A DNA stretch of 64,000 bases, taken from positions 689,599 through 753,598 of the forward strand of contig CAVSQJ010000001.1 in the NCBI GenBank assembly GCA_963730095.1, given 5' to 3'. A program made the position numbers and the translations under genes. Below are positions 12,712-63,629 of the stretch, one piece after another. The stretch comes from an uncultured Acidobacteriota bacterium (GTDB lineage: Bacteria; Acidobacteriota; Vicinamibacteria; Vicinamibacterales; SCN-69-37). Every line of letters begins with the position of its first letter. The stretch's first letter is position 1. Under the pieces are notes generated by a model. That model did no database searches, was not told where the DNA came from, and saw only the letters and a program-made list of their open reading frames with translations.

Positions 12712-12721
12712 GCCCGCTGCT

Positions 12722-20780: not shown

Positions 20781-23195
20781 ATGGGCACGCTCCTGCAGGA
20801 CGTGCGTTTCGCCCTGCGCAATTTGCGCCGGACGCCGGCATTTCCGCTGGCTGCCATCGGCACGCTCGCCCTCGGCATCGGCGCGACGACGGCGATCTTC
20901 GGGACGGTCAACGCGGTCCTGCTGAAGCCGCTGCCGTACCCGCGCGCGCAGGATCTCTACTCGCTTCGGACGAGGCTCACCGACGGCCGCACGACGAGCG
21001 GCCTGCTCTCCCCGGTGGAAATCCTGCGGCTCAATTCGCCGAACCTGTCCATTGAGCGGGCGGCGGGTCTCTTTCCGCAGGACGTGACGCTCTTGCGCGA
21101 CGACGGCACGCCGGTTCACACGGAGGTGTACGCCGTCACCGAGGGCTTCTTCGAGCTCTTCGGCCTGCCGATGACGCTCGGCGGCCTCACGCATGAGCAG
21201 TTCGTCGCGAACGGTCCGCCCGTCGTCGTGATCTCGTATCCGACGTGGCAAGACCTGTTTCACGGCGATCCGGCGGTCGTCGGCAAACCGATCCGCTTCG
21301 CGGAGATCACGACAACGGTCGCCGGCGTCGCGCCACGCGGGTTCGACACGCCCCACGGTGCGACCATCTGGTTTGGCACGGCGCTCGACCCGCAGGGCGT
21401 GAATCACAACTTCGAAGGGTTCATGCGGCTCGCGCCTGGCGCGGGCCTCGACCGGGCGCGCAGCGAGATGGCAAGCGTGATGAACGGGCTCGCGCACGAC
21501 TATCCCGCGAGCGACAACTCGCGCGTCTATGTCGTGCGATCGCTCGTCGAGTCGATCGTCGGCGATCTCGGGCCAATTCTCGTCGTCGTGCTGTCGGCGA
21601 CCGCGCTGCTGCTCGTGCTGGCGTGCGTGAACGTGACCAACCTGCTGCTCGCGCGCGGTGCGGCGCGGGCGAGGGAGATGGCGGTCCGCGTCGCGCTCGG
21701 TGCCGGCCGTGGGCGCATCGTCCGCCAGCTGCTGACCGAGTCGGTGCTGCTCGCGACGGCGGGCGCGGCGGTCGGCGTGCTCGCGGCATGGATCGGCACT
21801 CGCGTACTGCTCGAGATCGGCGCGTCGAAATTGCCGCGCCTCGAGTCGGTGACGTTCGACGGGCATGTGCTGCTGTTTGCGCTCGGCGCGCTCGTCGCGA
21901 GCGGCGTGTTCGTCGGGTTTGCGCCGGCGCTGCGGCTGGCCGCGACCGACGTCAAGACGCTGATGAACGAGACCGGCCGTTCGACGTCCGGCGGCCGCGG
22001 CACCGCGCGCTGGCTCGCCGTGATGACCGTGGCCGAGATCGCGCTCGCGGTGACGCTCGTGACCGGGGCGGGCTGGCTCATCCGGGGATTTGCCAATCTC
22101 CGTACGACCGATCCAGGTTTCGCGCCGGAGGGACGCCTGGTGTTCGACGTGGCGTTCATCGGACCCAAGTATCGTGACGGCGTGGCCGTGACTGCCGCGG
22201 CGAACGACCTGCTCGATCGGCTGCGCGCGCTGCCGGGCGTCGTCGCCGCGGGCGCGACGTCGAATTTTCCGTTTCGCGGCGGCAGCGGCCAGGAAAACTC
22301 GCTGCTCGTGCAGCGTCATGGCGAGACGATGGACCCGGCGCATCCGCTCGGGTCCCGGCAGCGCACGGCCAGTCCGGGCTACTTCGGCGCGATGGGGATC
22401 GCGCTCATCGCCGGGCGCGATTTCACGATCGACGATCGCCAGGACACCAGGCCCGTCGTGATCGTCAATCAGGCGTTCGCGCGCAGGAACCTGGCGGGGC
22501 AGGATCCGCTCACCGCGCGTTTTTCGGCCGGCTATCCGACGATCGACACGCGCACCGAGTTCACGATCGTCGGCGTCGTTGCGGACGTGCGCCAGCGATC
22601 GCTCAGCGATCCGCCCGAACCGGCGTACTACAACCCGCACGGGCAAGGCACGCCCCGCCGGCACACGGTCGTCGTTCACACGCGCCAGGCGGATCTCGCG
22701 TCGCTCGAATCCTCGATTCGGAGCGAGATCAGACAGACCGATCCGCAGATGGCGATCGACTTCGCGGACGCGACCGAGCTCGTCGGATCGACCCTGCGGC
22801 GGCAGCAGCTGGGCATGACGCTGATGCTGCTCTTTGGCGCGGCGGCAGTTGCGCTCGCGGCCGTGGGGATCTACGGCGTGATCGCCTACGCGGCCGCACA
22901 GCGCCGGAGCGAGGTCGCGACGCGACTGGCGCTCGGCGCGACGCCGTGGAATGTGTTCTGGCTCGTCATGAAAGAGGGGCAATGGCTCACCGCGCTCGGC
23001 GCGGTGACTGGCGTCCTCGTCGCGTATTTTTCCGGTCGCGTCGTGTCGAGCCGGCTCTACGAGGTGCGCGCCTCCGATCCGCTGATTCTCTTGTCCGCGA
23101 CCGCGCTCGTCGCCGCGATCGCGATCGCCGCGACGATGATCCCCGCGTTTCGTGCGTCGCGACTCGATCCGTCGCGCGTGCTGCGTCCCGATTAG
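20781..23195 (+). CDS. ADOP-type duplicated MacB/FtsX permease lacking the N-terminal prefix
   Basis: Starts directly at MGTLLQDVRFALRNLRRTPAFPLAAIGTLALGIG (TM1). Two FtsX blocks; ends LDPSRVLRPD. It lies 9 nt after the previous gene. Confidence 0.9.
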   Translation: MGTLLQDVRFALRNLRRTPAFPLAAIGTLALGIGATTAIFGTVNAVLLKPLPYPRAQDLYSLRTRLTDGRTTSGLLSPVEILRLNSPNLSIERAAGLFPQDVTLLRDDGTPVHTEVYAVTEGFFELFGLPMTLGGLTHEQFVANGPPVVVISYPTWQDLFHGDPAVVGKPIRFAEITTTVAGVAPRGFDTPHGATIWFGTALDPQGVNHNFEGFMRLAPGAGLDRARSEMASVMNGLAHDYPASDNSRVYVVRSLVESIVGDLGPILVVVLSATALLLVLACVNVTNLLLARGAARAREMAVRVALGAGRGRIVRQLLTESVLLATAGAAVGVLAAWIGTRVLLEIGASKLPRLESVTFDGHVLLFALGALVASGVFVGFAPALRLAATDVKTLMNETGRSTSGGRGTARWLAVMTVAEIALAVTLVTGAGWLIRGFANLRTTDPGFAPEGRLVFDVAFIGPKYRDGVAVTAAANDLLDRLRALPGVVAAGATSNFPFRGGSGQENSLLVQRHGETMDPAHPLGSRQRTASPGYFGAMGIALIAGRDFTIDDRQDTRPVVIVNQAFARRNLAGQDPLTARFSAGYPTIDTRTEFTIVGVVADVRQRSLSDPPEPAYYNPHGQGTPRRHTVVVHTRQADLASLESSIRSEIRQTDPQMAIDFADATELVGSTLRRQQLGMTLMLLFGAAAVALAAVGIYGVIAYAAAQRRSEVATRLALGATPWNVFWLVMKEGQWLTALGAVTGVLVAYFSGRVVSSRLYEVRASDPLILLSATALVAAIAIAATMIPAFRASRLDPSRVLRPD

Positions 23196-26556: not shown

Positions 26557-26871
26557 TCAGTCGACGTGAATGGACGCGTCGAATCGCTCGGCGATGCTGG
26601 CGTCGCCTTCCCACTCGCGCCAACGCTTGAGACCGAGCGGGGCGCTGCCGGCCGACTGGGCGTGGAACTCGAACGTGCGCGTGCCGCGCCCGCCAACGCC
26701 GCCTGCCGCATCGAACGTATCCTTGCGCAGCGCGAGGTTGACGGACGAGACGTCGATCTTCCAGCGGAAGCCGCTGCCCGGCGTCTCAGGCAGGCGCAGC
26801 AGCAGCTCGTCGCCGACACGCGCGCGCACGGTGCCGCCGTTGTCCTTCGACGTCGCGACGACCGTCGACAT
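26557..26871 (-). CDS. Chagasin-type (I42) cysteine-protease inhibitor
   Basis: 104 aa with the three family loops: LPETPGSGFRWKI, AAGGVGGRGTRTFEF and LKRWREWEG. Confidence 0.75.
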   Translation of the reverse strand: MSTVVATSKDNGGTVRARVGDELLLRLPETPGSGFRWKIDVSSVNLALRKDTFDAAGGVGGRGTRTFEFHAQSAGSAPLGLKRWREWEGDASIAERFDASIHVD

Positions 26872-28120: not shown

Positions 28121-30715
28121 TCAGCTGTCGCGAAGAATGCGGGCGGGATCGAGCCCGGCGGCCCGCCGTGCCGGGCCCCAGCACGCCGCGGCGGCGACGG
28201 CCACGAGCGTGACGGGAACGATCGCGAGCGTTGCCGGATCGGTGGGACTCACGGCGAAGAGCACGGCGCGGAGCAGCCGCGCGGTCAGCAAGGCCGCGCC
28301 GAGTCCGACGCCGACGCCCGCGAGCACGAGGCTCAATCCGCGCGAAAGCACGAGGCGCCGGATCGCGGCCGGATCGCCGCCGAGCGCCAGCCGCACGCCG
28401 ATGTCTCGCGCGTGCTGCTGGACGAAGTGCGCCATCACGCCGTAGATGCCGACGACGGACAGCACGAGTGCGGTGAGTGCGAACATCCCGATCAGCGTGC
28501 CGAGGTACGTCGGCTTGGTGATCGAATCGGCGACGAGATCGTCGCCCGTCGCGATGTCGGAGATCGCGAGCCCAGGATCGAGCGCGCGCACGGTTTGCTG
28601 CAAGGCGAGCGAGAGTGACGCCGGATCGACGGCCGTGCGCAGCACGAAGTACGCGCTTGGCAGGTCCTCGAGCGGGAAGTACACCGTGCCGTCCGGCTCG
28701 GCCTCCAGCCCTGTCCACTTCACGTCGTCGACGACGCCGACGACGGTCGTCCAGGGACAGGACGTGCAGCCGCCACTGTGCAATCGCCGGCCGATGACGT
28801 CCTCGCCGGGAAAAAAACGATTCGCCCAGGCGCGGTCGACGACGATGACGTCATCGGCGAGCGAGTGCGAGTCGAGCAGTCGGCCGCGCTCGAGGCGCAG
28901 GCCGACGGTCTTGAAGAAGTCCGGAGACACGCCGACCCAGGTGCAGATCGGCTGATTCTGGCCGACGGGCGCCGGATGATCTTCGAGATCGAAATTGTTC
29001 TGCTGGCCGGCGTCGTCCGGCGGCCGGCTGTCGGCGAGCGCGGCCGACGTCACGCCCGGCAGCGCGGCCAGCCGCTCGACGGATCGCGTCCAGAAATCCG
29101 CGCGGCCGGTGTCCTTGGCGTAGGCGGGGCCGGTGAGCTGGACGGCGGCGGTGAGCAGATGCGACGTGTCGACGCCGACGGGTACGTGCCGGAGATGGTC
29201 GAGGCTCGAGAGCACGAGTGTCGCAGCGATGATGAGCGGCGTCGCGAGCGCGAACTCGAGCGCGACCAGCACGCGCCGCAACCGGCGCGCGGCGGGCGCG
29301 TCGCTGTTCGATCGGCCGCTCGCCGCGAGCGCCTGGTCGATGCGCAGCCGCGAGCCGTGGATTGCCGGGACGATGCCGATCACGAGACCGCTCGAGGCGG
29401 CGAGGATCGCCAGCCACCCGAGCACGGGACCCGACAACCGGACTTCGTCGATCCGCGGGATGTCGCTCGCGCCGTAGCTCCTCAGCAGCTGAATCGCGCC
29501 CGCGGCCACGGCGAGCGCGATGAGCGCCGCCGCAATCGTGAGCACGCCGGACTCTGCCGCGATCGTCTGCAGCAGCCGGACCCGCGACGCACCGAGCGCC
29601 CCGCGAATCGCCAACTCGCGACTGCGGCCGAGCGCGCGCGCGACGAGCAGGTTGACGGCGTTCGCGCACGCGATGAGCAGGACGCACGCCACGGCCGCCA
29701 GCGCGACGAACAGCGTCGAGCCGACGTCGCGGACGACGCGCGACTTGAGATCCTGCAGGCCCCAGGTGGCCTTTTCGTCCTGATATGACGATCGCCAGAT
29801 CGGAAAGAGCCGCCGGTTGGTCGCGCGCAAGGTGTCGAGAGCGGCAGCGCGGGAGATCCCGGGCCGCAGGCGACCCAGCGCCATCGTGAAAAACGGACCC
29901 TTGCGCGTCGGCGTCGGCCAGTGCGCGGCGGTGAAGAGCGAGATGTCGTGCTCGAGCGGGCCGCTCGGGCCGGCGAGCACCCCGACGATCGTCGCGCTCC
30001 CGCCGTCGATCGTCAGCGTTCGGCCGACGATCATGGGATCGGCTCCGAAGCGCTTCGCCCAGTACGGTGTCGTCAGCACGACGAGGGCGCCGCCGCGCGC
30101 ATCATCCGACGGGTCGAACAGTCGGCCGAGCGCGGGCTTCTGGCCGAGGAGCGGGAAATACGATCCGGTGACGTCCTTCGCGTTCACGCGCTCCGATTCC
30201 CCGTTCGTCGTCACGGTGACGCGATTCGTCTGGTAGCCGGCGATGCCGCTGAGGGCGGGATGATCGGCCTCGAGCGCGCGGTAGTCGACGACGGAGAAGC
30301 GGAAGTGAAAGGGCGGCGTGTCGGTGTAGATCCACGCGAGCGAGCCGGCGTCGGCGTAGGGCAGAGGGCTCACGAGCACCGCGCGGATCACGCTCACCAT
30401 CGCGGTCGTTGCGCCCAGGCCGATGCCGACCGTGAGCACGATCGTCGCGGCCACGATTGGCGCGCGCGCGAGGCTGCGGAGGCTATAGAGGACGTCCTGC
30501 CCCAGGTGCGTGACGCTCGATCGCGCCTCGTCCCACGTGTGGCTCATGCGCGCTCCCGCCAGGTGAAACGCGAACCCGACCCGCTGCCGGCGCAGCCATC
30601 GGGCGGCAGCGCGGTCGCCGTCCTGCCGGCGGTGCAGTTCGTAGAGCTCGGCCAGCTCGCTTTCGATCACGCGACGGTCCGCGTCGCTCACGAGCCACCG
30701 CGTCAGCCAGCGCAT
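28121..30715 (-). CDS. ADOP-type duplicated MacB/FtsX permease (different prefix type)
   Basis: 864 aa. Prefix is MRWLTRWLVSDADRRVIESELAELYELHRRQ. Two FtsX blocks; ends LDPARILRDS. The start is 1 nt after the PadR stop. Confidence 0.9.
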   Translation of the reverse strand: MRWLTRWLVSDADRRVIESELAELYELHRRQDGDRAAARWLRRQRVGFAFHLAGARMSHTWDEARSSVTHLGQDVLYSLRSLARAPIVAATIVLTVGIGLGATTAMVSVIRAVLVSPLPYADAGSLAWIYTDTPPFHFRFSVVDYRALEADHPALSGIAGYQTNRVTVTTNGESERVNAKDVTGSYFPLLGQKPALGRLFDPSDDARGGALVVLTTPYWAKRFGADPMIVGRTLTIDGGSATIVGVLAGPSGPLEHDISLFTAAHWPTPTRKGPFFTMALGRLRPGISRAAALDTLRATNRRLFPIWRSSYQDEKATWGLQDLKSRVVRDVGSTLFVALAAVACVLLIACANAVNLLVARALGRSRELAIRGALGASRVRLLQTIAAESGVLTIAAALIALAVAAGAIQLLRSYGASDIPRIDEVRLSGPVLGWLAILAASSGLVIGIVPAIHGSRLRIDQALAASGRSNSDAPAARRLRRVLVALEFALATPLIIAATLVLSSLDHLRHVPVGVDTSHLLTAAVQLTGPAYAKDTGRADFWTRSVERLAALPGVTSAALADSRPPDDAGQQNNFDLEDHPAPVGQNQPICTWVGVSPDFFKTVGLRLERGRLLDSHSLADDVIVVDRAWANRFFPGEDVIGRRLHSGGCTSCPWTTVVGVVDDVKWTGLEAEPDGTVYFPLEDLPSAYFVLRTAVDPASLSLALQQTVRALDPGLAISDIATGDDLVADSITKPTYLGTLIGMFALTALVLSVVGIYGVMAHFVQQHARDIGVRLALGGDPAAIRRLVLSRGLSLVLAGVGVGLGAALLTARLLRAVLFAVSPTDPATLAIVPVTLVAVAAAACWGPARRAAGLDPARILRDS

Positions 30716-30716
30716 C

Positions 30717-31040
30717 TCAGCTCCTGGGCGTTTTGAGCAGCGGCGCGAGGCCGCGCCACAGACGCGCGTGCTCGACCTGGTGCGCCTTGACGACGGCGAG
30801 GCCGCGCCTGGTCAGCTTGACGTAGCGGCGCGTGCGCCCGGCGTCGGGCGCGTCCAGCCGCGAGGCCACGAGGCCTTTGGCTTCGAGGCGGCTCAGGGCG
30901 ATGAAGACCGCCGCGGGCGCGACGCGCCGGCCCGCGCGCTTCTCGAGCTCGAGGAGCAGCGGCACGCTGTAGGTCTCGCCGCGCTGGCGCAGCATCGCGA
31001 CGAGGACCTGGAGCTCGAACGTCTGGAGCGACTTCGGCAT
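30717..31040 (-). CDS. PadR-like transcriptional regulator (short subtype)
   Basis: 107 aa: FELQVLVAMLRQRGETYSVPLLLELEKRAGRRVAPAAVFIALSRLEAKGLVASRL..RRYVKLTRRG. Confidence 0.8.
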   Translation of the reverse strand: MPKSLQTFELQVLVAMLRQRGETYSVPLLLELEKRAGRRVAPAAVFIALSRLEAKGLVASRLDAPDAGRTRRYVKLTRRGLAVVKAHQVEHARLWRGLAPLLKTPRS

Positions 31041-31102: not shown

Positions 31103-33454
31103 CTAGAACGCCCTGATCGCCCGGACCCGCCGCGGGAAGTCCTTGTCGTCGCTGTGCTGGCGGCCGTTGTCGGCGAAATCGATGTGCGCCGCCATGTCGG
31201 TGGTCTGCTGCGACGAGGACCAGTAGGTGAAGTTGTCGGCGATGCCGCGGCCGGCGAAATCGCCGAGGCCGGTGGCCTTGAGCGCGCGGTACATCTGGGC
31301 GAGCTCGTCGCGCGACGGCAGGAACCAGCCGCCGACGCCGTTGAGCGTGTATTCGGCGCAGAGCCGGGCGGCGGTGCCCGCCTCCGCGCAGGTCGCGAGC
31401 ATGTCCTTGGTGTTCTCGCGGCCGGCGCCGATGGCCGTGCCGCGCGCGCCGCTCGTGGGTGTGCGGAAGCAGCCCCACCTGGCGCCGGCGCTCTGATCGA
31501 CGGGCGCGGCCTCGAGGTAGCGCCAGCCGTCGGTCGCGTACTTCGGGTTGTCGTAGAAGATCAGGCCGCCCGCCGGGCCGACGTCGCCGATCGCGTACTC
31601 CGCGTGCGAGAGCCACACGGACATTTCACCGGCGCCGCGGTTGGCCCATTGGTAGTAGGGAATGAGCGTCACGGGCGCCGCCGCCAGCGTCGGGTTGGCG
31701 ACGCGACGGGCCGTCGTGCGAATCACCGTCGTGCCGTCGCGCGCCGGATCGACCGCGGCGACGAGCGGCGTATCGTGGCTCACGAGCAGATCGAGCACGC
31801 GCTTGTCGCCGGCGTCCGGCCACTCGGCGCAGTACACGATCGGCCCGCGCTCGATCGCCATCCGGCCCTTGTCCGCTCGCACGCGCGAGTCGGCGACGAC
31901 GCGCCGCACGTCCATCGGAAAGTCGACCGCGATGACGTCGCCGCTCGTCCAGGCCCGATCGATCGACACGTAGCCCATCGCGTCCGGCGCGGCGCCGACC
32001 GGCCGCCCGTTGACCGACACGGTCGCGCGCCGGTCGCTCGGTGTGCCGTAGCGATAGAGCGCCCCGGGCGCAGGCTGGTTGCGCGTCCAGCCCGGCATGC
32101 GCAGCTTGATCGCGCCCTTGACGTCGTGCTTGGCCGACATCGTGATCTTCGTTGCGCCGCCCCACGGCATGTCGCTCTCGACCTGGAGCGTGACCGGCTG
32201 ACCGCCGATCGCGAACGTCGCCTCGCTCGAGACGTACAGATTCACGTACACGGCGTCGCTCTTGTCCTGAGCGTAGATGAACCCCGGCATGCTCGCGAGA
32301 AACCGCACGAGGTTGGGCGGACAACACTCGAGCGAGGCGCGCGCCCAGCGGACGTCGCGCCCGTCGCCCGCGCTCGCGAGCCGGTTGACGTAGAAGAAGC
32401 GATCGCCGGACGCCGAGACGCCGTCGATCGCGTTGTTGTACATCCCGCGCTCCATGACGTCGATGTACTTGCTGTCGCCCGTCGCGAGGAACATCCGATG
32501 GTTGAACGTGATGAACATCAGCACCGCGCACGTTTCCGAGTAGGCCGAGATGTTCGGCAGCGCGTACGCCTCGCCGAAGCCTTCGTTGCCCGTCGAGCCC
32601 ACGCCGCCGGTGATGTACATCTTTCGCGTCGCCGCGTCCGTCCACATGCGCTCCGCGACCTTGAAGTACTCCGGCAGCCCGGTCAGCACGCCGACGTCGG
32701 CGACTGACACCATGAGCGAGCAGCAATTCACGGCGTGGCCGACCGCCTCGCTCTGCTCGAGCACCGGCGTGTACGACTGATTGTGGCGGCTGCGGCCGAC
32801 CGAGCTCTCGAGCCCGCGGATGTCGAGGTAGTGCTTCGCCAGATCGAGATGCTTCTTGTCTCGCGTGATGCGATAGAGCTGCAGGCAGTTGATCGCGTCG
32901 CGCTCGCCGCCGTTGAACGGCGGGTTGCGGACGCGGAAATCTTCGTAGAGCGCGTCGGCGGATGCGATCGCCGGATCGAGCAGGTCCCGCCTGCCGGTCG
33001 CCTGAAACCATGCCGCCGCGACCTCGAAGCCGCCGTTGCCGCGCTCGGGACGCGCCGCGAGCGAGCCAACGCTCGAGTCGACGATCTTCTGGAGCGCCGC
33101 ATCCGGGTGCGTCTCGAGCGAGTAGATCGCCGCCTCGAGCACGTTCCCGCTGAGCGCGCGGCCGTTCTCCGTCAGCTTCTGGACCTCGAACGGAATCGTC
33201 ACCGTCGCGTTGGTCGCGACCTTCGGCTGCCAGAACGCGTCGCGGAGCGCCACCTCGGCGTATCGCTTCGCGCGAATCGAGTAGTCGGCGACCGGCGTGT
33301 ACGCGCGGCTGCCAATCTGGACGCTCCCCGCGCTGGCCGACTGCGCCTCCGCGTGCGCCACCGGAAGGCGCGCCGCACACGCCAGGGCGCCCGCGGCCGC
33401 CGACGCCGTCTTCAGAAACTCCCGTCGAGCGATGGGATCTGCCATGGCCGCCAT
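31103..33454 (-). CDS. Tat-exported GH127 (DUF1680, beta-L-arabinofuranosidase family) fused to a C-terminal DUF1566/Lcl-like domain
   Basis: Tat signal ARREFLKTASAAAGA. The GH127-like core includes ..HAVNCCSLM..ETCAVLMF..LECCPPN. The last ~150 aa (GGLIFYDNPKYATDGWRYLEAAP..GGWFLPSRDELAQMY..YWSSS) is DUF1566-like. Confidence 0.8.
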   Translation of the reverse strand: MAAMADPIARREFLKTASAAAGALACAARLPVAHAEAQSASAGSVQIGSRAYTPVADYSIRAKRYAEVALRDAFWQPKVATNATVTIPFEVQKLTENGRALSGNVLEAAIYSLETHPDAALQKIVDSSVGSLAARPERGNGGFEVAAAWFQATGRRDLLDPAIASADALYEDFRVRNPPFNGGERDAINCLQLYRITRDKKHLDLAKHYLDIRGLESSVGRSRHNQSYTPVLEQSEAVGHAVNCCSLMVSVADVGVLTGLPEYFKVAERMWTDAATRKMYITGGVGSTGNEGFGEAYALPNISAYSETCAVLMFITFNHRMFLATGDSKYIDVMERGMYNNAIDGVSASGDRFFYVNRLASAGDGRDVRWARASLECCPPNLVRFLASMPGFIYAQDKSDAVYVNLYVSSEATFAIGGQPVTLQVESDMPWGGATKITMSAKHDVKGAIKLRMPGWTRNQPAPGALYRYGTPSDRRATVSVNGRPVGAAPDAMGYVSIDRAWTSGDVIAVDFPMDVRRVVADSRVRADKGRMAIERGPIVYCAEWPDAGDKRVLDLLVSHDTPLVAAVDPARDGTTVIRTTARRVANPTLAAAPVTLIPYYQWANRGAGEMSVWLSHAEYAIGDVGPAGGLIFYDNPKYATDGWRYLEAAPVDQSAGARWGCFRTPTSGARGTAIGAGRENTKDMLATCAEAGTAARLCAEYTLNGVGGWFLPSRDELAQMYRALKATGLGDFAGRGIADNFTYWSSSQQTTDMAAHIDFADNGRQHSDDKDFPRRVRAIRAF

Positions 33455-33532
33455 TCTAAGACCGTTCCCGCCAACCAACCGCGGGCCGGGATCGTCTCAG
33501 GTAGATGATCTAGTGGTCGGAGGCGCGAGCGC

Positions 33533-33886
33533 ATGCCGAAACGAGGAACGCCGCCCATCGAGGGCGATCTGCTGCAGGGCACGCTGGACCTGCTCATCCT
33601 GAGGACCGTCGCGCTCGGCGCGGCCCACGGCCACGCGATCGCGCACGCCATCGAGCGCCAGTCCGACGCGGTCCTCCAGGTCGAGCACGGCTCGCTCTAC
33701 CCGGCGCTGCACCGGCTCGAAGACCGCGGCTGGATCGCGTCGTTCTGGGGCACGTCGGAGAACAATCGCCGCGCGCGCTACTACCGCCTGACGCCGGCCG
33801 GCCGTCGCCAGCTCGCGCAGCAGACGTCACGGTGGGACGTGCTCGTCGGCGCCATCAACCGCGTGCTCCGACCGACGGGAGGCTAG
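33533..33886 (+). CDS. PadR family transcriptional regulator
   Basis: [64 protein letters not shown]. The stop directly abuts the permease GTG start. Confidence 0.9.
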
Positions 33887-36580
33887 GTGGGCGTCTCGCG
33901 CTTCTGGCGTCGCGCGAGGTGGGACGATGAACGTCGCGCCGAGCTCGAGGACTACGTCGCGCGCGAAACCGAGGACAACCTCGCGCGCGGCCTCAGTCCG
34001 GACGAAGCGCACGCGCGGGCCCTTCGCAAGCTTGGCAACGCCACGCTCGTGCGTGAGGAGATCTTCGAGATGAATACGATCAACTGGCTCGAGTCCGTCT
34101 GGCAGGACGTGAGGTACGGCGCGCGTGTGCTCCGCCGCAGTCCCGCGTTCGCCATTGTCGCGCTCCTCTCGCTCGCGCTCGGCATCGGCGCCAACGCGGC
34201 GATTTTTCAGCTGCTCGACATCGTGCGGCTGCGAACGCTCCCGCTCCACCGCCCCGAAGAGATCTTCGAGGTCCGCATCGGCCCGAACAAGACTGGTCGC
34301 ACAGGCTCGTTCCAGGGCACGAGGCCGTCGCTGACCAATCCGATCTGGGAGCAGATTCGCGATCAGCAGCAGTCGTTTTCGGACCTCGTCGCGTACGGCT
34401 CAGCCACGTTCGATCTCTCATCGGGCGGCGAAGCGCGGCCGGCGGAGGGCCTGTTCGTCAGCGGCCGCTTTTTCCATCTCCTCGAAGGACGCGCCGAGCG
34501 CGGGCGGCTGATCGAAGCCGGCGACGATGTGCGCGGATGTGGATCGCCGGGAGCGGTGATCAGCGCCGCGTTCTGGCAGAAGGAATTCGGCGGGGCAGGC
34601 GACATCGTCGGCCGCGCGCTCAGGCTCGACGGCCAGCCTGTGCCAATTATCGGCGTCGTCAATCGCGGGTTCGCCGGAATCGAGGTCGGCCGCCGCACGG
34701 ATGCGTATCTGCCGATTTGCGCCCGGCCACTCCTCAAGCGAAGCGATCCAGGGATCGACGCGCGCGCCGTCTGGTGGCTCGCGGCGTTCGGACGCCTCGA
34801 GCCGGGCACGACGATCGAGCAAGCGAAGGCCGAGCTGGCGTCGCGGTCGCCGGCGATCTTCCAGTCGACGGTCGCGCCCAACTACGCTCCAGAGGACGCG
34901 AAAGGCTACCAGGCCTTTCAGCTCTCGGCGTTTCCCGCCGGCACGGGCGTGTCCGGGCTGCGCGCCCGCTACAGCGATTCTCTGACGGTGTTGCTCTCGA
35001 TTGCCGGGCTCGTGCTGCTGATCGCGTGCGCGAACCTGGCGAACCTCATGCTCGCGCGCGGGGCGGCACGGGCGCGCGAGATTTCGCTGCGATTGGCGAT
35101 TGGCGCGTCGCGTCGGCGCGTGTTCCGGCAGCTGATCGCCGAGAGCCTGCTGCTCGCCGGTCTCGGCGCGGCGGCCGGCATCTGGCTGGCCCTCGCGCTG
35201 AGCCGTCTGCTCGTTGCGATCCTCGTGAGCGACGGCGGCCCGTGGACGCTCGATCTCGCGATCGACTGGCGCCTGGCGGGCTTCACGGTCGCGCTCGCGG
35301 TCGTCGCGTGCCTGCTGTTCGGCCTGTGGCCCGCCTGGCGCGCCACGCGCACCCAGCCCAGCGAGGTGCTGAGGCGATCGGGCCGAGGCCTGACGGCGGA
35401 TCGCGGCCGCTTCATCGTGCGTCGCGTACTGGTCGTGTCGCAGATCGCGATCTCGCTCGTCCTCGTGGTCGGCGCGCTCCTCTTCGTCGGCACGCTGGAG
35501 AACCTGACGACGGCCGATTTCGGGTTCTCCGATCGCGACGTGCTCACCGCGAATCTCGACTTGCGCCCGGCGGGCGTCGCGCCGGGCGCGATGCTGGTGT
35601 TTCAGCAGCGCCTGCTCGATCGGCTGCGCGCGGTGCCGGACGTGGCGCAGGCATCGTCGGCCGCGATCGTGCCGGTGAGCGGGTCGGGCTGGAATGAGAC
35701 GGTCATCATCGACGGCGAGAAGAAGGACGGGCATCCCGACGCGAATCGCGTGAGCGCGTCATTCTTCCAGGCGCTCGCCGTGCCGTTCATCTCGGGCCGC
35801 ACCTTCGACGCGCGTGACAAAGTGGGCGCGCCGCCGGTCGCCATCGTGAATGAGGCGTTCGCGGCGAAGTACCTCGGCGCCAATCCGATCGGGCGGTCGT
35901 TCAGGCTCGAGGTCGGCCCGGGCGATCCGGATCCGACCTTCGAGGTCATCGGCGTCGTGCACAACACGAAGTATCGCGATCTGCGCGAGCCGCTCGGACC
36001 GATCATGTACTTCGCGGACACTCAGGAGGCCGAGCCGTCGCCGTTCATCACGGTGGTCGTCAGGGCGCGGCACGATTCGGCGGCGCTCCGCGCGAGCCTG
36101 ATGCGCGCGGTCGCCGACGTGCATCCGGCGATCACGGTGACACTGCAGTCGATGACCGAACAGATCCAGAGCACGCTGCTGCGCGAACGGCTGATGGCCG
36201 CGCTCTCGGGCGGCTTTGCGGCGCTCGCCGTCGTGCTTGCGGCCGTCGGCCTCTACGGCCTGATGGCGTACGGCGTGGCGCGGCGACGCAACGAGATCGG
36301 CGTGCGCGTGGCGCTTGGCGCCACGCGCGGCCGCATCGTCCTGATGATCGTTCGCGAGACGGCGATCCTCGTGGTCGCCGGCGTCGTCGCCGGCGTCGGG
36401 TTGACGATCTGGTCGGGCCGCGCGGCCGAGGCGCTGCTCTATGGCCTCACCGGATCCGATCCGCGAATGCTGGCGATCGGCGTCCTCGCGCTCACGGCCG
36501 TCGCCGTCATCGCGAGCGTGGTGCCCGCGCAGCGGGCCGCGCGGCTGGATCCGACGACGGCGCTGCGCGAAGAAACGTAG
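33887..36580 (+). CDS. ADOP-type duplicated MacB/FtsX permease with helical prefix
   Basis: 897 aa. Prefix is ELEDYVARETEDNLARGLSPDEAHARALRKLGN. Two FtsX blocks; ends LDPTTALREET. Confidence 0.9.
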   Translation: MGVSRFWRRARWDDERRAELEDYVARETEDNLARGLSPDEAHARALRKLGNATLVREEIFEMNTINWLESVWQDVRYGARVLRRSPAFAIVALLSLALGIGANAAIFQLLDIVRLRTLPLHRPEEIFEVRIGPNKTGRTGSFQGTRPSLTNPIWEQIRDQQQSFSDLVAYGSATFDLSSGGEARPAEGLFVSGRFFHLLEGRAERGRLIEAGDDVRGCGSPGAVISAAFWQKEFGGAGDIVGRALRLDGQPVPIIGVVNRGFAGIEVGRRTDAYLPICARPLLKRSDPGIDARAVWWLAAFGRLEPGTTIEQAKAELASRSPAIFQSTVAPNYAPEDAKGYQAFQLSAFPAGTGVSGLRARYSDSLTVLLSIAGLVLLIACANLANLMLARGAARAREISLRLAIGASRRRVFRQLIAESLLLAGLGAAAGIWLALALSRLLVAILVSDGGPWTLDLAIDWRLAGFTVALAVVACLLFGLWPAWRATRTQPSEVLRRSGRGLTADRGRFIVRRVLVVSQIAISLVLVVGALLFVGTLENLTTADFGFSDRDVLTANLDLRPAGVAPGAMLVFQQRLLDRLRAVPDVAQASSAAIVPVSGSGWNETVIIDGEKKDGHPDANRVSASFFQALAVPFISGRTFDARDKVGAPPVAIVNEAFAAKYLGANPIGRSFRLEVGPGDPDPTFEVIGVVHNTKYRDLREPLGPIMYFADTQEAEPSPFITVVVRARHDSAALRASLMRAVADVHPAITVTLQSMTEQIQSTLLRERLMAALSGGFAALAVVLAAVGLYGLMAYGVARRRNEIGVRVALGATRGRIVLMIVRETAILVVAGVVAGVGLTIWSGRAAEALLYGLTGSDPRMLAIGVLALTAVAVIASVVPAQRAARLDPTTALREET

Positions 36581-52226: not shown

Positions 52227-54803
52227 TCAGGACGCCTGGCCGGCGTCGACGGGCAACAGCACTTCGAACACCGCGCCCTGGTCCTCGTGGTTGGTGGCGT
52301 GGATCGATCCGCCGTGCGCCTCGACGATCGATCGTACGATCGAGAGGCCCATGCCCATGCCAGTGGGTTTGGTCGTGTAGAAAGGTTCGAAGACGAGGTC
52401 CTCGCTGCCGGCGGGGAGGCCGGGTCCGGTGTCGTGCATGCTCACGCGGACGGCCTCGCCGTCGATCGCGCGGCAGCGCACGGTGACCAGGCGCGCGCCG
52501 AGGGGCTGGTCGTCGACCGCGTCCATCGCGTTCTGCAGCAGATTCAGCACGACCTGCTGCAGCTGCACGCTGTCGCCGCGCACGAACACCGGGTGATGAT
52601 CGACGTCGAGCGACACGGTGACGCCGCGGACGATGGCGTCGCCGATGACGAGGTCGGCCACCTCGCGGATGACCTTCGTCAGGTTGACGCGCGTCATGGC
52701 GAGCTCGCCGCGGCGCAGCAGCTCGCGCAGGCGCTTGATGATGTCGCTCGCGCGGCGATCGTCCTTCACGATGTCCACGAGGATCGCGTGCAGCTTCGCG
52801 AAGTCGGGATTGGGGGAGTCGAGCACGCGCCGCGCGGCCTGGGCGTTGGTCATGATCGCCGAGAGCGGCTGGTTGAGCTGGTGCGCGATCGACGCCGTGA
52901 GCTCGCCGACCGTGGACACGCGCGCGACGTGGGCCAGCTCCTGCCGGCTGCGCTGCGCTTCGAGCTCGGCGCGGCGCACGTCGGTGACGTCCGACTGCGC
53001 GATGACCGCGCCGCCCTCCGACGAGCCGAGCGGCAGCACCTGCAGCGTCCACCACTGCGGCGCCGGCCCCACGTCCGATCGGTGATCGAGCGAGAACTCC
53101 GGCTGCGATCCGCTCAACACGGCTGCGATGCCGGGCGCGAGGGCGCGCGCCAGCGGCTCCCCCAGGCGCGCGGCGGCCTCGCAGCTCATCAGGAGGTTGC
53201 CGCCGACCGCCACGTCCATCGCGCCGCTCTCGCGCGCCACCGCCCTCCACGCTTCATTCAGCGCGACGACACTGCCGAGACGATCGACGACCGCGACACC
53301 TGTCTGAAGCGATTGCAGGATCGCCGACTTCATCAGCTCGCTCGTGCGCAGGGCGTCCTCGGTCTGCTTGCGCGCCAGCGCGCTCGCGAGGACCTCGCTC
53401 ACCAGCCGCAGGTTCGCCTTGAGCTCGTCTTCCCATCGCCGCTCGACGAACGACCCGCACGCGAGCACGCCGAGGAACGTGTCCTTGCCGGCGAGCGGCA
53501 TCGCGAGCGCGGCGTTCAGCCCCAGGCTCTCGAGCGATCGCCGGTCCGTGGCGGCGTTCTCCGGCAGCGCGTCGAGGTTCGGCAGGTTGAGCACCCGGCG
53601 CTCGAACAGCATGTCGAGGATCCACGGGAAATCGCGCGTCACGAGGATCTCCGGCGGGGGGCCGAGGCGCCGTCCGGACCACCAGTACGTCGCGCGGAAC
53701 GCGCATGCGTCGTCGGTCGCGACGAACAGCGCCAGCAGGTCCACCCGCAGCACGGCGCCGATCTGGCCGAGCCACTTGTCGAGCGCGGCGTCCATTTGGT
53801 CGCTCGGCAGCTGCACGAACGCGCCGGAGAGCCGCGAGAGCAGCTCTTCGAACTCGAGCCGCGAGGCGAGCGCATGCTGCGTGTGGCGGCGTTCATCGAC
53901 CAGCGTCGACACGTACATCAACGTCGTCGCGACGACGATGAGCGAGATGATGAGCGCCGGCACCGTCGTGTTCGGATCGAGCGTCGCGAACGGGCCGACG
54001 CCATGCACGAGCGACCAGCCGCTCAGGAGGGATGTCGCGAGCAGCGTCACGCCGGCGCCGACGGGCCCGAAGCGCACTCCCGCCCACAGCAGGAACGGCA
54101 GCTGCAGCGCGAGCGGCGCCTGCGTCGTGAGGACGCGAAGCGCCGGCAGGTTTGCGAGCTCGCTGTGCAGCCCGCTGACCCACACGACGCTGAAGCCGAT
54201 CGCGAGCACGAGCGCTTCGGTGGTGCGCGAGGTCCATCGGTTCTCGCGCCAGCGCGGCAGCGCGCCGATGAGGCCGACGACCGCCGGCACGAACGTGAGC
54301 TCGGCCAGCGCGTTGCTGAACGTGCGCCTCGCGAACACGGTCCAGTACGGCTCGCCGTGGAAGATCGTCACCGCCGCGGCGTCGGCGAACGACGAGAGCA
54401 GGGGCCCCGCGATCACCGCCGACACCATGAAGGCGGTCAGCCGCGGGAACGTGTCGAAGTCGCGCGGCGAGTCGCTGAAGAGCCAGATGCCGCCAGCGGC
54501 GACCACCGCCTCGATGCAGTTGGTGACGAAGAGCGAGAGGATGAGCGGCAGCGGCCAGCCCGTGCTGTGCTCGACGAACAGATGGATCGGCAGCGCCGCG
54601 AGCAGCAGCAGCGGCCAGCGCTTCGGCGGCGAGAGCACCAGCGCGGAGGTGAGGATCGCGTTGGGCGGCCAGAGAATCGACGGCGTCGCGCCGGGCAGCC
54701 GGAGACTGAGCCCGACCTGGCACGCGGCGTAGTAGCCAACGGCCACGCCAAGCGCACCGCCGATCAGAGCGAGGCGCGAACTCGCCGGGCGCGTGGGTGT
54801 CAT
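52227..54803 (-). CDS. MASE1-GAF-PAS-HisKA-HATPase_c sensor histidine kinase
   Basis: Start at MTPTRPASSRLALIGG. The MASE1-like polytopic N-terminus includes ..SILWPPNAILTSALVL... H-box is ELTASIAHQLNQPL. The ATPase region is LLQNAMDAV..HDTGPGL..GMGMGLSIVRSIVEAHGG. Confidence 0.85.
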   Translation of the reverse strand: MTPTRPASSRLALIGGALGVAVGYYAACQVGLSLRLPGATPSILWPPNAILTSALVLSPPKRWPLLLLAALPIHLFVEHSTGWPLPLILSLFVTNCIEAVVAAGGIWLFSDSPRDFDTFPRLTAFMVSAVIAGPLLSSFADAAAVTIFHGEPYWTVFARRTFSNALAELTFVPAVVGLIGALPRWRENRWTSRTTEALVLAIGFSVVWVSGLHSELANLPALRVLTTQAPLALQLPFLLWAGVRFGPVGAGVTLLATSLLSGWSLVHGVGPFATLDPNTTVPALIISLIVVATTLMYVSTLVDERRHTQHALASRLEFEELLSRLSGAFVQLPSDQMDAALDKWLGQIGAVLRVDLLALFVATDDACAFRATYWWSGRRLGPPPEILVTRDFPWILDMLFERRVLNLPNLDALPENAATDRRSLESLGLNAALAMPLAGKDTFLGVLACGSFVERRWEDELKANLRLVSEVLASALARKQTEDALRTSELMKSAILQSLQTGVAVVDRLGSVVALNEAWRAVARESGAMDVAVGGNLLMSCEAAARLGEPLARALAPGIAAVLSGSQPEFSLDHRSDVGPAPQWWTLQVLPLGSSEGGAVIAQSDVTDVRRAELEAQRSRQELAHVARVSTVGELTASIAHQLNQPLSAIMTNAQAARRVLDSPNPDFAKLHAILVDIVKDDRRASDIIKRLRELLRRGELAMTRVNLTKVIREVADLVIGDAIVRGVTVSLDVDHHPVFVRGDSVQLQQVVLNLLQNAMDAVDDQPLGARLVTVRCRAIDGEAVRVSMHDTGPGLPAGSEDLVFEPFYTTKPTGMGMGLSIVRSIVEAHGGSIHATNHEDQGAVFEVLLPVDAGQAS

Positions 54804-54875
54804 CGACGACGGCGTTATTCTATGACTTCTCGCGCTCCTGCCGCGGCGCGAGCCTCCGAAGTCGTGCGGGGGGTG

Positions 54876-54884
54876 TGGTAATAT
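54876..54884 (+). promoter_or_regulatory. Possible extended -10 element (TGgTAATAT) for the sortase operon
   Basis: This is the lowest-GC patch of the divergent intergenic region. No convincing -35 element. It is followed by the GGGGAC..GTCCCC hairpin before GTG 54946. Confidence 0.25.
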
Positions 54885-54945
54885 TCGTTTCGCTCCCGTA
54901 ATTTCGCGTGATCTGGCGGGGACTCCGTGTCCCCGGGAGAACGTC

Positions 54946-55590
54946 GTGACGCGTCCGTCCTTGGTGTGGCGAGTGCTGGAGCAAGGCGCCTGGACCGCCG
55001 GCATCGTGTGCGTGAGCGCATGGGCCGTCGTCGCGTTCACGGGCGCCGCGCGTGCGCGCCACGACATCAGTCGCTTCGAAGCGTTGCGAGACCAGGCGGC
55101 CACGCTCGCCGCCGCACCGCCCGATCTCAGCCTCTGGTCCGAGCCGCGCGTCCGCGCCTGGCGCGCCGCGCTCGCCGCCGACGGGCCCGCGCCGCTCGCC
55201 GTGCTCCGTATTCAACGGCTGCGGCTCGAAGCGCCCATCCTCGAGGGCACCGACGATGCGACGCTCGATCGCGGCGTCGGCCACATCGACGGCACGCCCG
55301 AGCCCGGCGCCGACGGCAACACCGGCCTCGCTGGACATCGCGACGGCTTCTTTCGCGTGCTCAAGGACATCACGCCCGGCGACACCCTCGAGCTCGAAAC
55401 GCTGCGCGCCACCGAGCGCTACCGCGTCGAGCGCACGTGGATCGTGACGCCTGACGACGTGTCGGTACTCGATCCGACCTCCTCGCGCGCGATCACGCTC
55501 GTGACCTGCTATCCGTTCTATTTCGTCGGTTCCGCGCCCCAGCGCTTCATCGTCCGCGCCGTGCAGACGACCGTGAGCGCGGCGCGATAA
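54946..55590 (+). CDS. Sortase, Gram-negative (class GN / marine-proteobacterial) type
   Basis: N-terminal TM. The catalytic triad context is GLAGHRDGFF (His), ITLVTCYPF (Cys) and QRFIVRA (Arg). Confidence 0.85.
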   Translation: MTRPSLVWRVLEQGAWTAGIVCVSAWAVVAFTGAARARHDISRFEALRDQAATLAAAPPDLSLWSEPRVRAWRAALAADGPAPLAVLRIQRLRLEAPILEGTDDATLDRGVGHIDGTPEPGADGNTGLAGHRDGFFRVLKDITPGDTLELETLRATERYRVERTWIVTPDDVSVLDPTSSRAITLVTCYPFYFVGSAPQRFIVRAVQTTVSAAR

Positions 55591-55628
55591 GTCTCTCCAC
55601 TCGGCGGCTGGGTCTGGAAGGAGGCTCT

Positions 55629-56420
55629 ATGAGAGGCAATGCAAGGTGGCTCACGGGGATCGTCGGTGCCGGATTCATCTGCCTGATGGCTGGCATCGCG
55701 ACCGCGCAGCAAACGAGCACGTCAACCGAAACGAAGCGCTTCGAAGTGATTTCCGTCACCGGCAACAAAACGGTCCTGCGTGCCCAGGACGGCACGTCGA
55801 AGGAGTACACGGTTCCGGAAGACTTCCGCTTCGACGTCAATGGCCAGAAGATCTCGGTGCACGATCTGAAGCCGGGAATGAAGGGCACCGCGACGATCAC
55901 GACGACGACCACGGTCACGCCGGTCACCGTGACTGAAGTGCGCAATGGCGAAGTGATTCAGGCGAACGGCGGCTCCGTGCTCGTGCACGGGCCGAACGGC
56001 TTCAAGATGTTCACGCAGGGCGACGTCGACAAGCGCAACATCACGGTCATGCGCGACGGCAAGCCGGTGGATATTTCGGAGCTGCACGCCGGCGATCGGC
56101 TGAGCGCAACGATCGTGACCGAGAAACCGCCGAAAATCATGACCACGCAGCAGGTGCAGGCCAGCATCGCGCCGGGCACGCCTGAAGCGGCGGCGCTCGC
56201 AGAGGCCACGACGCCAGCGGCATCATCCGCGAAGGCGGCGCCGCACGCGGGCGCGTCCTCGGCCGCCTCGTCTTCCGCGATGTCGGCCCCGAGCACGGGC
56301 GGGACGGCCGGGAAGACGCTGCCGAAGACCGCGAGCTCGCTCCCGCTCGTCGGGATCAGCGGTCTCGCGCTGCTCGCGTTCGCTGCGCTGCTCGCGCTGC
56401 GGCGCCGCGTGGCTGTTTAG
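55629..56420 (+). CDS. Predicted sortase substrate: secreted two-domain protein with a C-terminal LPKTAS sorting signal
   Basis: Signal peptide, two ~70-aa beta-rich repeats and an Ala/Ser-rich linker. The tail is TLPKTAS-SLPLVGISGLALLAFAALLAL-RRR (motif, TM, basic tail). A strong GGAAGGAGG RBS precedes it. Confidence 0.8.
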   Translation: MRGNARWLTGIVGAGFICLMAGIATAQQTSTSTETKRFEVISVTGNKTVLRAQDGTSKEYTVPEDFRFDVNGQKISVHDLKPGMKGTATITTTTTVTPVTVTEVRNGEVIQANGGSVLVHGPNGFKMFTQGDVDKRNITVMRDGKPVDISELHAGDRLSATIVTEKPPKIMTTQQVQASIAPGTPEAAALAEATTPAASSAKAAPHAGASSAASSSAMSAPSTGGTAGKTLPKTASSLPLVGISGLALLAFAALLALRRRVAV

Positions 56421-56439
56421 CGGATCGTCAGACGTCCGA

Positions 56440-56472
56440 GCCCGACGGCGCGCGCCGGCGCTGCCGTCGGGC
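56440..56472 (+). terminator. GC-rich hairpin after the sortase-substrate gene
   Basis: 10-bp stem GCCCGACGGC/GCCGTCGGGC with a 13-nt loop, 20 nt after the stop. No clear T tract. Confidence 0.4.
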
Positions 56473-56600
56473 CGCTTGACGCCACGAACTCTCGCGGGTC
56501 GTGCGCGCAGGCGGGCTCGCGCATCGACTTGGGGGCGCCGCGAATGTGATGCGGCCGCCGATTTGCGACGGAACGACCGTTGCAGAGTCGAGGACCGGCC

Positions 56601-62165: not shown

Positions 62166-63629
62166 TCAGTATTTCGGCAGTGTCGGATCGACTGCCGCGA
62201 TCCACGCCAGAATCCCGCCCGTGAGGTTGCTGGCGCGCGCGTAGCCGTGCTGGCGGAGCAGGGCGACGGCCTTGGCGCTGCGGCCGCCCATCTTGCAGTG
62301 CACGACGATGTCCGGCGCGTCGGGGCCTGAGGGAATCTCGGCGAGGCGCTTCGGTAGCTCGCCGAGCGGAATCAACGTCGAGCCGGGAATGCGGCAGATG
62401 TCGAACTCGCGCGGCTCGCGCACATCCAGAATCCACGTCGGCGTGCCGCGGTCCAGGCGCGCCTTGAGCTCCTCGACCGTGATCTCCGGTTCGGTCGACG
62501 CCGCCGCCGCGGTCGCGGCCGGCGCGACGCCGCAGAACTGCTCGTAGTCGATGAGCGCCTTGATCGTCGGCCGATCGCCGCAGATCGGACACGCCGGATC
62601 GCGCCGCAGCTTCACCGTGCGGAACTCCATCGTCAGCGCGTCGAGCAGCAGGAGCCGGCCCGCGAGCGTCTGTCCGGCGCCGGTGATGATCTTGATCGCT
62701 TCGGTCGCCTGGATCGTGCCGACCAGCCCCGGCAGGACGCCGAGCACGCCGCCCTCGGCGCAGCTCGGCACGAGGCCCGGGGGCGGCGGCTCCGGATAGA
62801 GGCAGCGGTAGCACGGGCCGTCCTTCGTCGCGAAGACCGAGGCCTGTCCATCGAACCGGAAGATGCTGCCGTACGCGTTCGGCTTGCCGAGCAGCACGCA
62901 GGCGTCGTTGACGAGGTAGCGCGTCGGGAAATTGTCCGCGCCGTCGACGATGACGTCGTACTGCGCGAAAAGATCTCGAGCGCGTTCGCCGACGTCAGCC
63001 GCGTTTCGTGCTCGACGACGCGCACGTTCGGATTGAGGTCGACGTGAGCCGTTCGGCGGCCGCCGCGAGCTTGCGGCCGACCGACGTCCGCCGTCGATGT
63101 ACAGGATCTGCCGCTGCAGGTTGCTGAAATCGACCGTGTCGAAATCCACCAACCCGAGCGTGCCGACGCCCGCGGCCGTGAGGTAGAGCGAGGCCGGCGA
63201 ACCCAGGCCGCCGGCGCCGATGCAAAGCACGCGCGCGGCCTTCAGGCGCTTCTGACCCTCGACGCCGATCTCCGGCATGATGAGGTGCCGACTGTAGCGC
63301 CGGACCTCTTCATGCGAGAGCGCCGCTGGGTCGGCCGGCGCCGCCACCGCGTCCGTGCCGCCGGCGACCGACGGCACGATGCTCACGGTGTCCGCCGCGC
63401 CGACCGCCGTCCGCTCGCGATCCAGATACCGCACGTCCTCGTCGTTCACGTACACGTTGACGAAGCTGCGCAGCGATCCATCCGACGCAAACAGATGCGG
63501 CTTCAGATCGACGTACTCGCTCGTCAGGCGATCGAGGACCTGTCCAACCGTGGCGCCCTCGACGTGGACGACGGCCTGCTGGGCCGTGAACGGCCGGAGG
63601 GGCGTGGGAATGCGAACGGTTACGGGCAT
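62166..63629 (-). pseudogene. CysO/ThiS-like Ubl (GG at aa 90-91) fused to a MoeZ/MoeB-type E1 adenylyltransferase and a C-terminal rhodanese; about 45 codons internally out of frame
   Basis: The Ubl domain reads MPVTVRIPTPLRPFT..FVNVYVNDEDVRYL..TVSIVPSVAGG. The E1 domain reads RYSRHLIMPEIG..VLCIGAGGLGSP..CYRCLYPEPP..CPICG. The rhodanese domain reads VVHCKMGGRS. The middle segment is nonsense in the long ORF, while ORFs 62995..63225 and 62633..63025 read GRKLAAAAERLT and VRVVEHETRLTSANALEIF. Confidence 0.85.

Follow-up and report, generated by a model that had tools for sequence, protein, structure and literature searches.

The 64-kb stretch of DNA analysed here (referred to below as the window) carries on its forward strand a sortase gene closely followed by the gene for a small secreted protein with a C-terminal sorting signal, here termed the cargo. 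An earlier note, drawn from the sequence alone, had described the pair as a compact two-gene system of a non-proteobacterial genome in which a sortase of the Gram-negative, marine-proteobacterial type acts on a dedicated neighbouring substrate. Reading of the open reading frames (ORFs) places the sortase (GTG start, 214 amino acids) where that note had put it and gives a cargo of 263 amino acids with an ATG start. The features of the locus are as follows.

54804-54945, no strand: intergenic region separating the divergent MASE1 histidine kinase and sortase genes, presumably with the promoter (by position only)
54946-55590, plus strand: sortase gene, class D-like clade (Pfam, NCBIfam class models, match to 2LN7, AlphaFold2, Foldseek)
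54994-55050, plus strand: predicted anchor of the sortase in the membrane, N-terminal residues 17-35 (best hydropathy window)
55120-55161, plus strand: clade-specific segment after the anchor and ahead of the catalytic domain (alignment of 43 homologs)
55336-55338, plus strand: codon of catalytic His131 in GHRDGFF (aligned to LSGHRD of 2LN7)
55507-55509, plus strand: codon of catalytic Cys188 in LVTCYPF (aligned to LTTCYPF of 2LN7)
55543-55545, plus strand: codon of catalytic Arg200 in QRFIVRA (aligned to DRYIIEA of 2LN7)
55616-55624, plus strand: Shine-Dalgarno sequence GGAAGGAGG of the cargo gene, 4 nt 5' of the ATG (read in the sequence)
55629-56420, plus strand: cargo gene, with signal peptide, two small beta-barrel domains, disordered linker and LPKTAS signal
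55629-55706, plus strand: putative signal peptide of the cargo, residues 1-26, with probable cleavage at ATA/QQ (alignment)
55707-56162, plus strand: beta-rich domains, two homologous copies at residues ∼27-100 and ∼101-178, with a Thr-rich hairpin between them (self-alignment, AlphaFold2)
56163-56318, plus strand: low-complexity Ala/Ser/Pro/Gly linker, about residues 179-230, predicted to be disordered (predicted local distance difference test, pLDDT)
56319-56336, plus strand: LPKTAS motif, residues 231-236, with putative cleavage between Thr234 and Ala235 (by analogy with class D biochemistry; PMC8225981)
56337-56417, plus strand: hydrophobic helix, residues 237-257, and basic tail RRRVAV (sequence; AlphaFold2 helix 238-262)
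56440-56472, plus strand: GC-rich hairpin without a U-tract, 20 nt 3' of the cargo stop codon (folding energy)

The sortase stop codon ends at 55590 and the cargo ATG lies at 55629, which leaves a gap of 38 nt containing the strong ribosome-binding site that the earlier note had pointed out. The MASE1 histidine kinase gene starts at 54803 on the minus strand; the divergent intergenic region is assigned a promoter role because of its position alone, and a sigma-70 scan of the locus did not find the consensus. The hairpin beyond the cargo gene (fold of 56418-56485 with a minimum free energy of -39.6 kcal/mol, z = -2.8) ends at base 56472, the last base of the stretch singled out by the earlier note, and probably marks the end of the transcription unit; a simple terminator scan of the locus did not flag it because it lacks a U-tract. 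The short gap, the strong Shine-Dalgarno sequence and the hairpin after the cargo gene indicate that the two genes form an operon.

The sortase matches the Pfam Sortase model (PF04203) with 104.9 bits against a cutoff of 26.6 and TIGR01076 with 83.5 bits against a cutoff of 39.35. The motifs GHRDGFF, LVTCYPF and RFIVRA, which start at residues 130, 185 and 200, respectively, align with those of Bacillus anthracis SrtD (PDB entry 2LN7), and the resulting triad of His131, Cys188 and Arg200, together with 50 further positions, is invariant in an alignment of 43 homologs. The same structure is the best match among PDB sequences (E = 9e-24). The AlphaFold2 model (pLDDT 83) gives Foldseek probabilities of 1.0 with many solved sortases (E-values down to 5e-13), with Clostridium perfringens SrtD (4D70) ranking first and 2LN7 showing the highest identity (39%), a comparison of predicted folds that cannot by itself tell the sortase classes apart. 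The putative anchor at residues 17-35 is located inside a long helix predicted for residues 6-53. Between this anchor and the catalytic domain lies a segment that appears to be specific to the clade: Pro59, Asp60, Leu63, Trp64, Ser65, Arg68 and Trp72 are invariant or nearly so in the 43 homologs, the clade-specific invariant residues that precede the catalytic domain are Phe44, Pro59, Leu63, Trp64, Arg68 and Trp72, and a helix is predicted for residues 66-77.

Scores against class-specific models place the enzyme closest to class D. The highest are those of NF058671 (SrtD, LPxTATN-specific; 134.3 bits, below the cutoff of 140) and NF033746 (class D; 125.9 bits, below the cutoff of 165), followed by the models for class E (86.3 bits), the Gram-negative (GN) or marine class (TIGR03784; 85.0 bits against a cutoff of 158.25) and class C (71.4 bits). 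Eight relatives of the sortase show an identical class order, with 132-140.3 bits for NF058671, 124-133 for NF033746 and 76-91 for the GN model; two of the eight just reach 140 bits with NF058671. Class D models thus rank first for all nine sortases scored, an ordering that derives from hidden Markov model (HMM) scores and not from a tree. Judged by these sequence models, the sortase is a member of a class D-like clade whose scores fall slightly short of the curated class D cutoffs; class D is its nearest class, and it lies clearly outside the marine class. The assignment to that class in the earlier note is therefore not upheld: in the HMMER comparison with the Sortase and marine models that it had suggested, the former passes its cutoff, the latter fails, and the enzyme falls into another class.

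The cargo begins with a hydrophobic stretch followed by an AxA and Gln-Gln site that is conserved in the alignment, consistent with a signal peptide that would be cleaved at ATA/QQ. The two beta-rich repeats of ∼70 amino acids reported in the earlier note align with one another (z = 6.4 versus shuffled controls), and the AlphaFold2 model contains two beta-rich domains spanning residues 28-175 (pLDDT mostly ∼80-92 in this block), a linker predicted to be disordered (residues 178-232, with pLDDT values under 50) and a terminal helix at residues 238-262. Linkers of relatives have a median length of 53 residues, and two lysines of the cargo, Lys81 and Lys135, are nearly invariant in the alignment. 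At E ≤ 0.001 the cargo has more than 2,200 homologs, the best 120 of which span 226-290 amino acids, and an exhaustive profile search with the two-domain core yielded 871 representatives at 50% clustering, those listed being mostly of ∼250-290 amino acids or fragments.

No known domain accounts for the body of the cargo. It has no Pfam or NCBIfam match apart from the anchor models and no VWA domain, in agreement with the earlier description of a small protein unrelated to VWA proteins. A Foldseek search against the PDB returned nothing at E ≤ 0.001 and weak likeness to tandem small barrels or OB-like domains, and a profile search of PDB sequences with the cargo family returned nothing below E = 0.29. 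Myosin_N (SH3-like), NfeD and DUF1344 were rejected as identities because they occur as scattered weak Pfam matches (E ≤ 5 in 51 family members). The cargo domains thus constitute a newly defined family for which no Pfam model exists.

The cargo ends in LPKTAS, a hydrophobic stretch of 21 residues and RRRVAV, the tripartite tail noted earlier. TIGR01167 (LPXTG_anchor) matches it with 18.7 bits, above the cutoff of 15.9, and PF00746 with 19.4 bits, marginally under the cutoff of 20; PF00746 also matches 38 of 51 members of the cargo family at E ≤ 5 (best E-value 9.5e-06). Among the best 120 cargo homologs, 100 retain LPKTAS and 107 retain LPKTA. The residues following LPKTA are S-x-LPL and not TN, in contrast to the LPxTATN signal of NF058671. 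In a six-frame scan of the window, the cargo ORF alone combines an LPxT-type motif with a helix and a basic tail. The tail is not a chance occurrence, since it is the sole such tail in the window, adjoins the sortase and is conserved in so many homologs. The earlier note had taken LPKTAS for the signal of the marine class; the motif itself is present, but the LPxTA signals of class D explain LPKTA equally well (PMC8225981).

The association of the two genes was examined from both sides, using 80 cargo-centred loci kept from 208 matches among GTDB species-representative genomes and 80 metagenome loci centred on the sortase; genomic sequence was read within the window and in flanks that reached 6 kb at most. 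A sortase adjoins the cargo gene in 62 of the 80 cargo-centred loci: 55 show the arrangement of the window, with the sortase upstream and both genes on one strand, five have the sortase downstream in the same orientation, and in two it is encoded on the opposite strand; 15 loci with full flanks have no sortase. Conversely, a cargo-family gene is adjacent in 66 of the 80 sortase-centred loci, comprising 53 clear family members, ten divergent two-barrel proteins and three one-domain variants, while the remainder have an unrelated small LPxT-tailed protein (two loci) or none (12 loci, at least four of which leave no room for it on the contig). The ten divergent neighbours carry LPKTG, LPHTG or LPKTA tails and match the cargo profile with E-values of 1e-17 to 5e-49. 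In this conserved two-way adjacency the earlier suggestion of an apparently dedicated substrate of a genuine sortase is borne out, and the pair proves both compact and conserved.

Several observations on individual loci accompany these counts. The divergent cargo subfamily (loci L122, L129, L134, L143, L144, L145, L162, L164 and L165) has a Pro-rich linker (PPPPPAPPAD), and the sortases beside it are 44-60% identical to that of the window. In L121 (4712-5428) and L167 (1988-2734, minus strand), the neighbour of a sortase from the same clade is another small protein, unrelated to the cargo, that ends in LPKTAA or LPSTGS; thus, the clade is not limited to one cargo fold. The source genome has, on the same contig, a second sortase-cargo pair with 68% and 61% identity to that of the window (P0124 and P0013, locus L004), so that the unit seems to have been duplicated as a whole; this second pair adjoins a Bestrophin-like gene.

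When neighbouring genes were clustered over the 80 loci, nothing apart from the sortase recurred in more than ∼20% of them, which rules out the MASE1 kinase, ABM and MarC neighbours as conserved partners. A recurring neighbour of ∼220 amino acids with two repeats was likewise rejected as cargo-like (mixed cluster, HHalign probability 12%). Four loci (L085, L086, L087 and L056) share the order DUF481 outer-membrane protein, sortase (after a gap of ∼18 nt), cargo and a secreted protein of ∼635 amino acids for which no Pfam match was found (L085, 2901-7522; L086 and L087, 2863-7554); this order may point to a link with the outer membrane in part of the loci.

The sorting motif and the sortase vary together. 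Among cargo-family representatives at 50% identity, 38 lack the LPxT motif (with linker, helix and basic tail retained) and 31 possess it. The members ending in a plain helix and basic tail (for example in loci L041, L050, L063, L065, L069 and L071; P0244-P0271) are natural sortase-independent versions anchored in the membrane, mostly without a neighbouring sortase. In the genome loci, LPxT-tailed copies have an adjoining sortase in 55 of 64 cases, whereas six of the nine copies scored as having only a transmembrane helix have no sortase within ∼5-6 kb; the other three comprise a copy that is in fact MPKTGS-tailed (L067), the second member of a tandem, and a copy whose sortase is encoded on the opposite strand. 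From a comparative standpoint, such co-variation is good evidence that the motif exists for the neighbouring sortase. The linkers of sortase-type and membrane-anchored copies have median lengths of 53 and 59 residues, respectively, without clear separation in this small sample, and the family as a whole suggests that C-terminal tethering via a flexible linker is its common functional theme.

The host is a diderm acidobacterium, probably of the Vicinamibacteria, as judged from paired ADOP-type permease and PadR genes, an outer-membrane receptor, the labels of related loci and their outer-membrane genes. Six duplicated MacB_PCD/FtsX (ADOP-type) permease genes lie in a 37-kb part of the window (1236-4239, 9695-12840, 15738-18721, 20781-23195, 28121-31040 and 33533-36580); at least five are paired with a PadR-family regulator, whose small gene stands immediately before five of them, which is taken here to be a typical acidobacterial arrangement. 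The window also encodes a receptor with a CarboxypepD_reg domain and an outer-membrane beta-barrel, and Mla and DUF481 outer-membrane genes are present in related loci. The 80 related genome loci are labelled Acidobacteriota (49), Vicinamibacteria, Vicinamibacterales or Vicinamibacteraceae (22), Thermoanaerobaculia (four), Solibacteraceae (two) or actinobacterial (three). The last three (L041, L049 and L051) are metagenome-assembled genomes labelled Actinomycetes, Actinomycetota or Bifidobacteriaceae that contain an acidobacterial-type cargo gene, and these labels are probably binning or naming errors and not real occurrences in monoderms. The earlier impression of a non-proteobacterial genome thus proves correct.

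Taken together, the locus is best read as an operon of a class D-like, membrane-anchored cysteine transpeptidase and its dedicated substrate, in which the cargo becomes linked to the periplasmic peptidoglycan, an interpretation favoured here with some reserve. The cargo would be exported by the Sec system, lose its signal peptide and be held in the inner membrane by its C-terminal helix and RRR tail. Cys188 would then attack the LPKT/AS bond between Thr234 and Ala235, releasing the helix and forming a thioacyl intermediate. By analogy with class D enzymes, the amine that resolves this intermediate would be that of the meso-diaminopimelic acid (m-DAP) side chain in lipid II or peptidoglycan. 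The fold and triad of the sortase, the sorting signal and the genetic linkage come from the results above, and the remaining steps are taken from class D biochemistry (PMC8225981). The two small beta-barrel domains would finally be tethered covalently to the periplasmic wall via a flexible linker of ∼50 residues, where they would probably act as a binding or tethering module. A broader proposal, advanced more tentatively and with less than even confidence, is that the acidobacterial clade attaches this new two-barrel periplasmic protein to peptidoglycan or another envelope polymer and so provides diderms with a second enzymatic route, besides L,D-transpeptidases, for attaching proteins to the wall, the attached protein being an envelope-spanning tether or a binding module.

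Several points weigh against the peptidoglycan-linkage reading. The sortase falls short of both class D cutoffs, and class D chemistry may therefore not transfer to it; the putative cleavage site and acceptor are proposed by analogy with class D. The literature searched did not confirm which peptidoglycan chemotype the Vicinamibacteria have. Nine LPxT-tailed copies have no adjacent sortase, which implies that some sortases serve more than one substrate, and the description of the cargo as a dedicated substrate has the scope of the tail scan, namely the 64-kb window, so further substrates may lie elsewhere in the genome. Finally, the domains that would be displayed have no Pfam, PDB-sequence or significant fold match.

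The most serious competitor, considered possible although distinctly less probable, is a functional sortase with an acceptor other than peptidoglycan, such as water (leading to maturation or release), a lipid amine of the membrane or outer membrane, or a lysine of an envelope protein, for example an outer-membrane protein. Gram-negative sortases are not well characterized and a sortase acceptor has not been shown in any diderm (PMC8225981), in line with the point made in the earlier note about the attachment partner; in the literature retrieved, attachment of proteins to diderm peptidoglycan is described only for L,D-transpeptidases (PMC8263019). The conserved N-terminal segment of the clade, its scores under the class D cutoffs and the DUF481 gene ∼18 nt upstream of the sortase in some loci would also fit such an acceptor. 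However, the nearest characterized relatives attach their substrates to m-DAP (PMC8225981), the paralogs with a plain anchor suggest that permanent tethering matters rather than release, and DUF481 adjacency is confined to a few loci, the sortase being the sole conserved neighbour of the cargo. Polymerization of the cargo into a pilus-like fibre in the manner of class C, with a conserved lysine of the cargo as the nucleophile, is improbable. The near-invariance of Lys81 and Lys135, the two beta-rich domains, the conserved P-D...L-W segment of the sortase at the position of the class C lid and the class C structures among the top fold matches speak for it, but among the main class models that of class C gives the lowest score, the cargo matches neither a pilin motif nor a Cna/Ig-like fold, and pilins do not typically have a disordered linker of ∼50 residues ahead of the motif. 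Moreover, the conserved neighbourhood contains neither tip or base pilin genes nor an outer-membrane export route, and the plain membrane-anchored paralogs could not polymerize in this way.

That the enzyme is a marine-proteobacterial class GN sortase with a newly acquired, smaller cargo is very unlikely. The layout of one sortase with one adjacent target resembles the GN system (PMC3237569), the host is Gram-negative and LPKTA(S) is compatible with the GN motif as given in the earlier note. Against this, TIGR03784 is never the top class model in the window's sortase or its eight relatives, the HMM scores already indicate placement outside the GN clade, there is no VWA or TIGR03788-type target, the host belongs to the Acidobacteriota and not the Proteobacteria, and the closest relative with a solved structure belongs to class D. 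The least credible explanation holds that the two genes came from Firmicutes by horizontal transfer and are now an inactive remnant, or that they lie together by chance. Although the nearest characterized relatives come from Bacillus and Clostridium, the conservation of the triad and 50 other positions in the 43 homologs, the retention of the motif in 100 of the 120 best cargo homologs and the existence of thousands of homologs, with 208 matches among GTDB species-representative genomes, all argue against this, and the GC content at third codon positions of the pair (0.85-0.87) is that of the remainder of the window.

Class D sortases recognize LPXTA signals and join the threonine to diaminopimelic acid cross-bridges, attachment to m-DAP being known for B. 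anthracis (PMC8225981). The systems of this class (B. anthracis SrtC, the 'SrtD' of 2LN7, with BasH and BasI bearing LPNTA; Bacillus subtilis YhcS-YhcR; C. perfringens SrtD, 4D70) share with the acidobacterial pair the top-scoring class models, the best PDB match, the TCYPF, GHRD and Arg motifs, an LPxTA-type signal and the small number of substrates, often encoded beside the enzyme (PMC8225981). The acidobacterial sortase differs in its scores below both curated cutoffs and in its own conserved segment between anchor and catalytic domain, its host is a diderm acidobacterium and not a sporulating monoderm, and its cargo family is new. With the class GN systems (TIGR03784 and a VWA or vault-like target) the pair has in common a dedicated sortase, a single adjacent LPXTG-type target and a Gram-negative host (PMC3237569); however, the sortase clade is another one, the target is a two-barrel protein of 263 amino acids and not a large VWA protein, and the host is an acidobacterium and not a proteobacterium. 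Because three defining features fail, namely the TIGR03784 cutoff, the VWA or vault-like target and the proteobacterial host, the pair does not belong to the GN family.

The attachment of Lpp, outer-membrane proteins and lipoproteins by L,D-transpeptidases (PMC8263019) would have the same outcome, a protein on m-DAP, if the cargo is indeed linked to peptidoglycan. The enzymes nevertheless have a YkuD fold instead of a sortase fold, the acidobacterial cargo would be joined through the C-terminal threonine of a cleaved sorting signal, and it is not known as an outer-membrane component. The rhombosortase/GlyGly-CTERM and exosortase/PEP-CTERM systems share a tripartite C-terminal signal and the placement of enzyme and single target side by side (PMC3237569), but their enzymes are not homologous to sortase and their motifs are different.

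Members of the pair carry public annotations such as 'sortase A', 'class D sortase', 'LPXTG-motif cell wall-anchored protein', 'LPXTG protein' and 'hypothetical protein', and the present analysis corrects the classification of the enzyme from 'sortase A' to the class D-like clade. The first notices of sortases in a few Gram-negative genomes date back to the early 2000s. The enzyme family and the generic annotations were already known; what is new is that sortases of a class D-like clade occur together with a novel cargo family in bacteria with a two-membrane envelope. Within the Acidobacteriota, an abundant phylum of soils, this clade is widespread; it differs from the marine class and is nearly always found beside one small substrate family of constant architecture. 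Six sortases have been counted by COG in Candidatus Solibacter usitatus (PMC3174227), and the literature searched contained no functional study of acidobacterial sortases beyond that count and nothing on LPKTAS. Most hosts of the pair are uncultured. The enzyme (∼25 kDa) and the substrate (∼27 kDa) are small, so both should be easy to express, and with the plain-anchor paralogs as built-in comparisons the pair offers a compact model for what a sortase attaches to in a two-membrane envelope.

Transfer RNA and Rfam scans of the window were empty. Its GC content is 68.8%, and at such a value (69%) long ORFs that lie opposite or out of frame with real genes are artefacts and not genes, for example that of 864 amino acids at 52287-54881 (plus strand) over the histidine kinase. 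The cluster of ADOP/PadR gene pairs is unusually dense. Other genes of the window that are apart from the sortase locus are the following.

26557-26871, minus strand: small chagasin-family (I42) peptidase inhibitor
31103-33478, minus strand: GH127 beta-L-arabinofuranosidase with a C-terminal Lcl-like domain (under the Pfam cutoff)
62166-63629, minus strand: single ORF of 487 amino acids joining ThiS, ThiF and rhodanese domains, a fused sulfur-carrier and activating-enzyme architecture

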